The notes under the pieces are model-generated. The model saw only the letters and a program-made list of their open reading frames with translations, made no database searches and was not told where the DNA came from. This document shows, in pieces, positions 22,114 through 22,376 of a stretch of DNA of 37,604 nt; position 1 is the first letter of the stretch, and every line of letters starts with the position of its first letter. Origin of the DNA: a virus. The position numbers were made by a program, and so were the translations under genes. The stretch is from the UHGV virus genome UHGV-0126502; one strand, given 5' to 3'.

Positions 22114-22376
22114 AGTAACAGTAAGGTAACAGATAAATAGCTAACTGTTACCTCCTGTAGGGAGCGCCACATAAGGCTTAACCCCGTTTTGGGTAACAGG
22201 TAACAGTTACTTTTAGTTCTATATACGTATGCGCAGGTATAGTACGTATAATATAAAGTCTCGCGTATATAAACTAAATACTACTGTTACCTGTTACCTT
22301 TTTTAGTTATCCATGTGAATTTATTGATATTTTCAAGGTAACAGTTAGTCGTTTTACTGTTACCTTACTGTTACCT
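22114..22376. repeat. Iteron-type replication origin: about ten GGTAACAG/CTGTTACC octamers around an AT-rich core
   Basis: Octamers at about 22114, 22125, 22145, 22192, 22199, 22284, 22291, 22337, 22357, 22368 in both orientations; core 22210-22280 is AT-rich with TATACGTAT/GTACGTATA repeats; directly 3' of the replication gene. Confidence 0.7.

Follow-up and report, generated by a model that had tools for sequence, protein, structure and literature searches.

The window analysed here, a stretch of 37,604 nucleotides, is an E. coli prophage, and its minus strand carries a gene for a 754-aa protein labelled by PGAP as a DUF5906 protein. Searches against Pfam detected a Prim-Pol domain (aa 75-185, E 3e-07) and a DUF5906 domain (aa 488-595, E 1.2e-13), and the protein also matched PHROG 1156, 'DNA primase' (E 5.6e-84). 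For its helicase part, a profile match (E 7e-19) was obtained to structure 6k9c, the NrS-1 primase-helicase; this was the only protein retrieved from the PDB with the sequence or the profile of the 754-aa protein, and over the helicase part only. On the same strand, a gene for a Cro-like HTH protein lies upstream of this gene, and a 139-aa hypothetical ORF and the gene of the Q antiterminator lie downstream; a gene for a CI/LexA-like repressor is divergent from that strand. The other arm of the window (27830-36013, plus strand) encodes a DUF2800/PD-(D/E)XK exonuclease, an Enc34-type SSB, a family A polymerase and a SNF2 helicase, a gene content that bears out the second, polymerase-helicase replication module assigned to this arm in the preliminary description.

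An array of short repeats follows the primase-helicase gene. Exact matches to the octamer GGTAACAG number 10 in the 37.6-kb window, whereas dinucleotide shuffles gave 0.68 on average and 5 at most. Nine of the ten fall within 22125-22375. Together with AGTAACAG, a one-mismatch copy of the octamer at 22114, they make an array of ten sites at 22114-22375, and no second octamer cluster was found in the window when one mismatch was allowed. Between the end of the last site (22375) and the stop codon of the gene (22379-22381) there is a gap of 3-4 nt. About ten octamers in both orientations, directly 3' of the replication gene, had been reported from a first inspection of the sequence, and both statements hold. 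Read along the window, the sites are oriented + + -, then + +, the core, - -, and + - -, with start-to-start spacings of 11, 20, 47, 7, 85, 7, 46, 20 and 11. The 3+2/core/2+3 layout has an exact two-fold symmetry, all five mirror pairs being centred at 22244.5-22245. The AT-rich core, previously estimated at roughly 70 bp with short repeats of its own, measures 77 bp and contains the inverted repeat TATACGTA/TACGTATA in addition to that given in Table 1. The motifs CTATATACGCGAG ... TAYGTATATAGAAC of the core are kept across relatives regardless of octamer type, and the position of the gene-proximal octamer triple is kept in 27 aligned origins. The flanking spacers differ in composition; since the distal spacer is GC-richer and carries the AGCCTTATGTGGCG motif, the two halves of the array are unequal. 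The array stretch is 100% identical in four complete genomes.

Table 1. Features of the repeat array and of the adjoining gene (positions in the window)
Feature	Positions	Strand	Remarks
Distal octamer triple	22114..22152		Sites 22114 + (one mismatch), 22125 +, 22145 -
Distal spacer, GC-richer	22153..22191		53.8% GC; conserved AGCCTTATGTGGCG motif
Inner doublet, distal side, overlapping octamers	22192..22206		Sites 22192 +, 22199 +
AT-rich core, presumed unwinding and priming region	22207..22283		28.6% GC, against 50.5% GC in the window; inverted repeat TATATACG/CGTATATA
Inner doublet, gene side, overlapping octamers with 7-bp period	22284..22298		Sites 22284 -, 22291 -
Gene-proximal spacer, very AT-rich	22299..22336		18.4% GC; AT-rich in all relatives
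Gene-proximal octamer triple	22337..22375		Sites 22337 +, 22357 -, 22368 -; exact GGTAACAG matches
Putative initiator gene	22379..24643	-	754 aa; PrimPol (AEP primase), SF3 helicase (DUF5906), C-terminal predicted winged helix
Predicted winged-helix DNA-binding domain	22454..22618	-	aa ~676-730
Predicted wing hairpin	22454-22504	-	aa ~714-730; segment varying with octamer type

We then considered the signals present in and around the array. Neither a DnaA box, an IHF consensus nor a GATC was found in 22063-22378, so that an origin dependent on the host initiator is unsupported. An Rfam search of the array region gave no match, and a scan for sigma-70-like promoters and intrinsic terminators gave none on the transcribed (minus) strand. 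Together with the gene order, the absence of terminators from that strand points to early transcription continuing across the array. PGAP placed no feature in 22063-22378, and the array is absent from RefSeq and GenBank annotation.

Relatives of the locus were drawn from annotated E. coli genomes and phages, from one genome per species, from IMG/VR viral contigs and from contigs with more distant homologues. At more than 40 loci, the same 3+2/core/2+3 array was found to start only a few nt from the stop codon of the homologous gene; these loci come from E. coli, Salmonella-like contigs, Serratia, Izhakiella, Erwinia, Xenorhabdus, Arsenophonus, Limnobaculum and Avibacterium. Across these loci the identity of the protein ranged from 36% (in Avibacterium) to 100%, and the order CI-Cro-primase-[array]-(small ORF)-Q was kept from E. 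coli to Xenorhabdus, Limnobaculum and Avibacterium. The array was absent after the gene in two homologues (L036 and L100), and the complete 36-kb related phage ON470582 has one such cluster and no second. A degenerate remnant absent from relatives, which had been named as one of the cases that would speak against an origin, is thus contradicted by a layout kept in more than 40 loci, down to 36% identity.

Essentially all ten sites of one locus share one octamer, and seven octamer types were distinguished between loci. GGT..C is invariant across loci, and positions 4, 5 and 7 switch at all sites in concert. Type A is GGTAACAG (the window, Serratia and Arsenophonus), type B1 is GGTGACGG/AG/GC, type B2 is GGTGACAG, and types C, D, E and F are GGTGGCAG, GGTGTCAG, GGTTGCAG and GGTAGCAG, respectively; the Limnobaculum octamer is TGACACAG. 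In the count of seven, GGTGACRG is entered as one type.

Several loci presented particular features. In an Arsenophonus contig (L101, 3040-3240), an A-type origin has 14 copies of GGTAACAG, as the canonical ten-site array is preceded by two additional tandem doublets with an A-run after each; the array is apparently able to grow by doublet duplication. In a Xenorhabdus bovienii contig (L099, 3320-3420), at least five copies of a second repeat family, GTAACAACC, occur in both orientations directly after the D-type GGTGTCAG array and may form a binding array for another protein. In Erwinia tracheiphila (L008, 2501-4742), the frame matching the primase-helicase ends after 139 codons and the gene is apparently disrupted; a complete GGTGACAG array persists after it. 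Shorter analogous arrays were observed at three loci (L009, 4650-4850; L010, 4680-4860; L011, 4669-4850), after or overlapping a gene whose product joins this N-terminal PrimPol (~330 aa, ~60% identical) to a helicase of the VapE type (PF05272) and to a different C-terminus; there, the repeats GGTGGCTAC, GGTGGTTCC and GGTGGTCTAG surround a CCCCATATATATATATAAGTCG core. The sequences of these three loci suggest that helicase and origin-binding modules are shuffled behind one primase. The replication module of the window is also present in an O121 prophage (L003, 2195-2892), where IS1A is inserted beside a shortened Q gene.

The C-terminal domain of the 754-aa protein is predicted to be a winged helix. 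A structure model of aa 604-754, built from a 35-sequence alignment, reached a mean pLDDT of 82.8, and about 90 across the last 90 residues, with the topology strand-helix-helix(698-709)-hairpin(717-728)-helix(737-753). An earlier model of aa 640-754, obtained with a 15-sequence alignment, was all-helical with a pLDDT of 54 and was dropped. Fold searches with the C-terminal domain returned generic winged-helix matches and singled out neither the origin-binding domain of P4 alpha nor SaPI Rep. The family of this domain is small, with 25 cluster representatives at E <= 0.001 among 1.84 billion in an exhaustive HMMER search; nearly all of them carry the domain C-terminally, mostly in proteins of 450-790 aa. 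A homologue search with the C-terminal fragment found 17 close partial proteins only.

In comparisons with the E. coli relatives, DNA identity was 97-100% at 22600-24600, 77-84% at 22400-22600 and 65-76% over the array, which places a mosaic junction inside the last ~70 codons of the gene. At the protein level, residues 1-680 of the E. coli proteins are 97-100% identical; between those associated with octamer types A, B1 and C, identity is ~100% in residues 1-700 and falls to 63-71% in residues 701-750. The variable residues come after a conserved TKR, on the predicted beta-hairpin wing. Wing sequences are QPTDLVKIDGMGYRFWIL for type A, EPVR-VKIDGFVYRIWIL for type B1, EAVK-LKVDGMTVRMWML for type C and EPVR-VKIDG(C/F)TNRFWLL for type D; the other octamer types carry further wing sequences, and every wing variant maps to one octamer type. 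At two loci (L015 and L016), a window-like recognition helix, KHITKLLREK, precedes a C-type wing and is accompanied by C-type octamers, so that the determinant maps after this helix.

Part of the association between wing and octamer is explained by linkage, as the wing codons and the array are less than 150 bp apart. The A-type wing and the A-type octamer nevertheless stay paired between E. coli and Serratia, whose origins are 99% identical in the iteron columns and 58-61% identical in the non-iteron columns, no closer there than origins of other types. This pairing argues against mere recent co-inheritance. The neighbouring proteins were also considered as binders of the octamer, and each was rejected, being identical beside different types: the downstream protein (WP_000034494.1) beside C- and B1-type arrays, the Cro-like protein (WP_000204616.1) beside C and B1, and CI (WP_001046700.1) beside A and C. 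In these sequences the C-terminal wing of the primase-helicase is the sole neighbouring protein segment that switches with the octamer, a relation that is correlative. A simple residue-to-base code in the wing triad failed, as ATV occurs with GGTGTCAG (GT) but MTV, LTV and DTV occur with GGTGGCAG (GG). In RFX-type proteins the major groove is read by the wing, a precedent that makes wing-based reading plausible here as well.

From these computational results taken together, we consider it highly probable that the segment 22114-22375 is the replication origin of the prophage and that the adjoining gene encodes its cognate self-loading initiator. Such an initiator/origin pair had been proposed in the preliminary description, and sequence comparison supports it through the conservation of the array across genera, the concerted switches of the octamers and the wing that switches with them. 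Binding, loading of a double oligomer, melting, priming and bidirectionality may be proposed by analogy with SaPI Rep, P4 alpha and pRN1 ORF904, for which experiments provide precedents of this logic. The early transcript that starts from the Cro-like gene would provide the PrimPol/SF3-helicase/winged-helix protein, and its winged helix would read the 8-bp GGTAACAG sites, with base-specific reading by the beta-hairpin wing. The five mirror-arranged sites on each side of the core would recruit two helicase oligomers of opposite orientation, able to melt the AT-rich core, and the PrimPol domain could prime the strands thus exposed. The family A polymerase, the SSB and the accessory helicase of the phage, encoded on the divergent arm, would then elongate in both directions.

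Other explanations of the array were weighed against this origin. The array could be an auxiliary cis site bound by the same protein, either crr-like as in P4 or serving copy control by handcuffing, with synthesis starting elsewhere. In P4, the array directly 3' of alpha is crr and ori lies ~2 kb upstream of alpha, and the array described here is at the position equivalent to crr; however, neither the window nor the complete phage ON470582 holds a second cluster, and the array has a conserved AT-rich core of its own between opposed sites, which is how a complete SaPI origin is laid out (PMC9371898). We regard such an auxiliary site as unlikely. A large DNA stem-loop or cruciform, of the sort proposed for pRN1 and Bordetella phage BIP-1, could also be the functional element, the octamers being merely its paired arms, a reading that does not exclude the origin. 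Indeed, the array region is predicted to fold as a single ~270-nt hairpin (dG -57 kcal/mol, z -9.1), long-hairpin folding is likewise predicted in all 22 related origins, and proteins of the PrimPol-SF3-wH type have been linked to a stem-loop 3' of their own gene (PMC4234260). Pairing of the arms requires that site 1 equals site 10, site 2 site 9 and so on, but it leaves unexplained that one octamer is shared by all five pairs, direct tandem copies included, at every locus. Moreover, the conserved consensus pairs are confined to iteron-iteron contacts and to ATATAC/GTATAT of the core; the conserved pairing in spacers expected of a pure cruciform was not found among the related origins. A stem-loop as the element that matters thus appears quite improbable.

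An operator or attenuator acting on transcription of the downstream ORF and Q, and bound by a regulator other than the primase-helicase, would fit an array located within the early operon, with the replication gene on one side and Q on the other, and the ability of sites 2/3 and 8/9 to form local hairpins. We hold it to be very improbable, as an identical CI, Cro-like protein or downstream ORF is found beside different octamer types, the minus strand shows no promoter or terminator and the region no Rfam match, and ten sites around an AT-rich core are atypical for an operator. Finally, a chance or decaying repeat without function is favoured only by the lack of annotation, and can practically be dismissed in view of an enrichment far above that of shuffled sequences, of a layout kept across bacterial families at 36% protein identity, and of iteron columns conserved at 99% compared to ~60% for the flanking columns.

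Among described architectures, the SaPI origin is the closest to the origin proposed here, in function and layout. SaPI Rep, to which a primase is fused in SaPI5, is a self-loading helicase-initiator of the SF3 type whose C-terminal winged helix reads short iterons; in the SaPI ori, 6-12 iterons come directly after the rep ORF and surround an AT-rich centre, at least two of them on each side and in opposed orientation, and the Rep/ori specificity varies between islands (PMC9371898). The window shares with it the iterons just downstream of the initiator ORF, the five opposed sites on each side of an AT-rich core, and an SF3 helicase with a predicted C-terminal winged helix in the initiator. The specificity matched to iterons also has a counterpart in the seven octamer types with distinct wings, as a correlation. 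In contrast, PDB sequence and profile searches revealed no homology to SaPI Rep structures, the sites here are of 8 bp, always ten and in a fixed 3+2/2+3 arrangement, and the host replicon is a Gram-negative temperate phage with its own polymerase and not a satellite.

The octamers had initially been compared to P4-type ori iterons, a likeness that holds in function only. P4 alpha also unites primase, SF3 helicase and C-terminal origin-binding domain in one polypeptide, and P4 also has 8-bp octamers in both orientations (GGTGAACA in P4) in an array directly 3' of the gene (GenBank X51522 annotation). However, neither BLASTP (E 0.36) nor hhalign revealed homology to P4 alpha, the hhalign probability being 0.3% with the full-length protein and 0.1% with the C-terminal domain, and the position of the array corresponds to crr and not to ori of P4. 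In addition, the P4 primase is of the Toprim type (PMC4234260), compared to a PrimPol here, and P4 needs two separated arrays in cis, ori and crr, compared to one in the window and in phage ON470582. The domain order PrimPol (PF09250), SF3 helicase and C-terminal winged helix is the same as in pRN1 ORF904 and in the protein of Bordetella phage BIP-1. For these two, an essential cis element where a long stem-loop is possible lies just 3' of their own gene, and the pRN1 origin was stated to be without iteron structure (PMC4234260). Here, by contrast, discrete octamers switching in concert dominate, and conserved pairing is confined to the octamers and the core inverted repeat.

The place in the genome, with the immunity region followed by replication and then Q, is that of lambda. 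In lambdoid phages, the DNA-binding segment of the initiator and the iterons vary together, as for lambda O and ori-lambda. However, the lambda iterons lie inside the O gene and the present array is intergenic; O is neither helicase nor primase and needs P and the host DnaB, whereas the initiator described here has both domains. Neither O- nor P-like genes are present in the window. In the 'Eru10' replication type of Shiga-toxin phages, the interval from cI to stx encodes a PF09250 primase-polymerase protein and Q alone, and neither origin nor iterons are described for that type (PMC8951638). The gene content of the module matches this description, and the module would thus correspond to 'Eru10'. 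An Stx2b prophage (L004, 1090-2325) carries the module with a B1-type array, and has stxA2b/stxB2b ~1 kb beyond Q. A literature search for the octamer strings, and for DUF5906 with iterons, found nothing relevant.

The origin is probably of a known kind, previously unannotated in this phage group, and its array is a simple annotation gain for RefSeq and GenBank records. For these temperate phages, in which the replication region has so far been classified by its gene content only, it would provide an origin and an initiator open to testing. This group includes Stx2b-converting prophages of apparent 'Eru10' type, and in Stx phages the dosage of the toxin gene is driven by replication after induction. 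The seven octamer types, each matched by a short wing of its own in a protein that is otherwise identical, form an unusually clean winged-helix specificity system, and this natural specificity-swap series is the most useful aspect of the finding; pairs of orthogonal origins and initiators could come from the octamer types.

A further reading of the covariation, which we put forward tentatively and with a little less than even confidence, is that the last ~70 codons and the ten-site array constitute a portable specificity cassette, recombined between near-identical prophages with a breakpoint near nt 22600. It would define at least seven mutually exclusive replicon specificities in Enterobacterales and Pasteurellaceae, with positions 4, 5 and 7 of the octamer discriminated by the beta-hairpin wing and not by the recognition helix. 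If this is the case, the natural variants already provide a mutational series with which to study a DNA recognition code based on the wing, and the specificities may prevent prophages that share a host, Stx2b phages among them, from activating one another's origins.

Some additional features of the prophage were observed. On the arm that carries the polymerase, a 222-aa ORF (29717-30385, plus strand) between the SSB and polymerase genes contains an Nmad5 domain ('nucleotide modification associated domain 5', E 2.7e-55), which hints at a DNA-modification function in the replication arm. A 310-aa ORF on the opposite strand (33583-34515, minus strand), between the polymerase and SNF2 helicase genes, matched PHROG 6287, 'BstA abortive infection system, replication inhibitor' (E 2.9e-105). 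Phage ON470582 has a TIR-like gene on the same arm instead, and this position looks like a variable slot for defence genes. Finally, the motif TYGCA-N6-YGCAAGT (ACTTGCR-N6-TGCRA on the sense strand) occurs in four exact copies, at 22086-22103, 22391-22408, 22443-22460 and 34592-34609, in the same orientation relative to the local genes. With at most one mismatch, five matches were counted versus 1.1 expected, a number reached in 1 of 100 shuffles. Three of the four exact copies flank the array, one being ~24 nt upstream of the start of the 139-aa ORF and the other two within the final 80 nt of the primase gene; the fourth is just ahead of the likely true start of the SNF2 helicase gene. The intergenic copy is kept in relatives and could be a regulator site or a promoter element.
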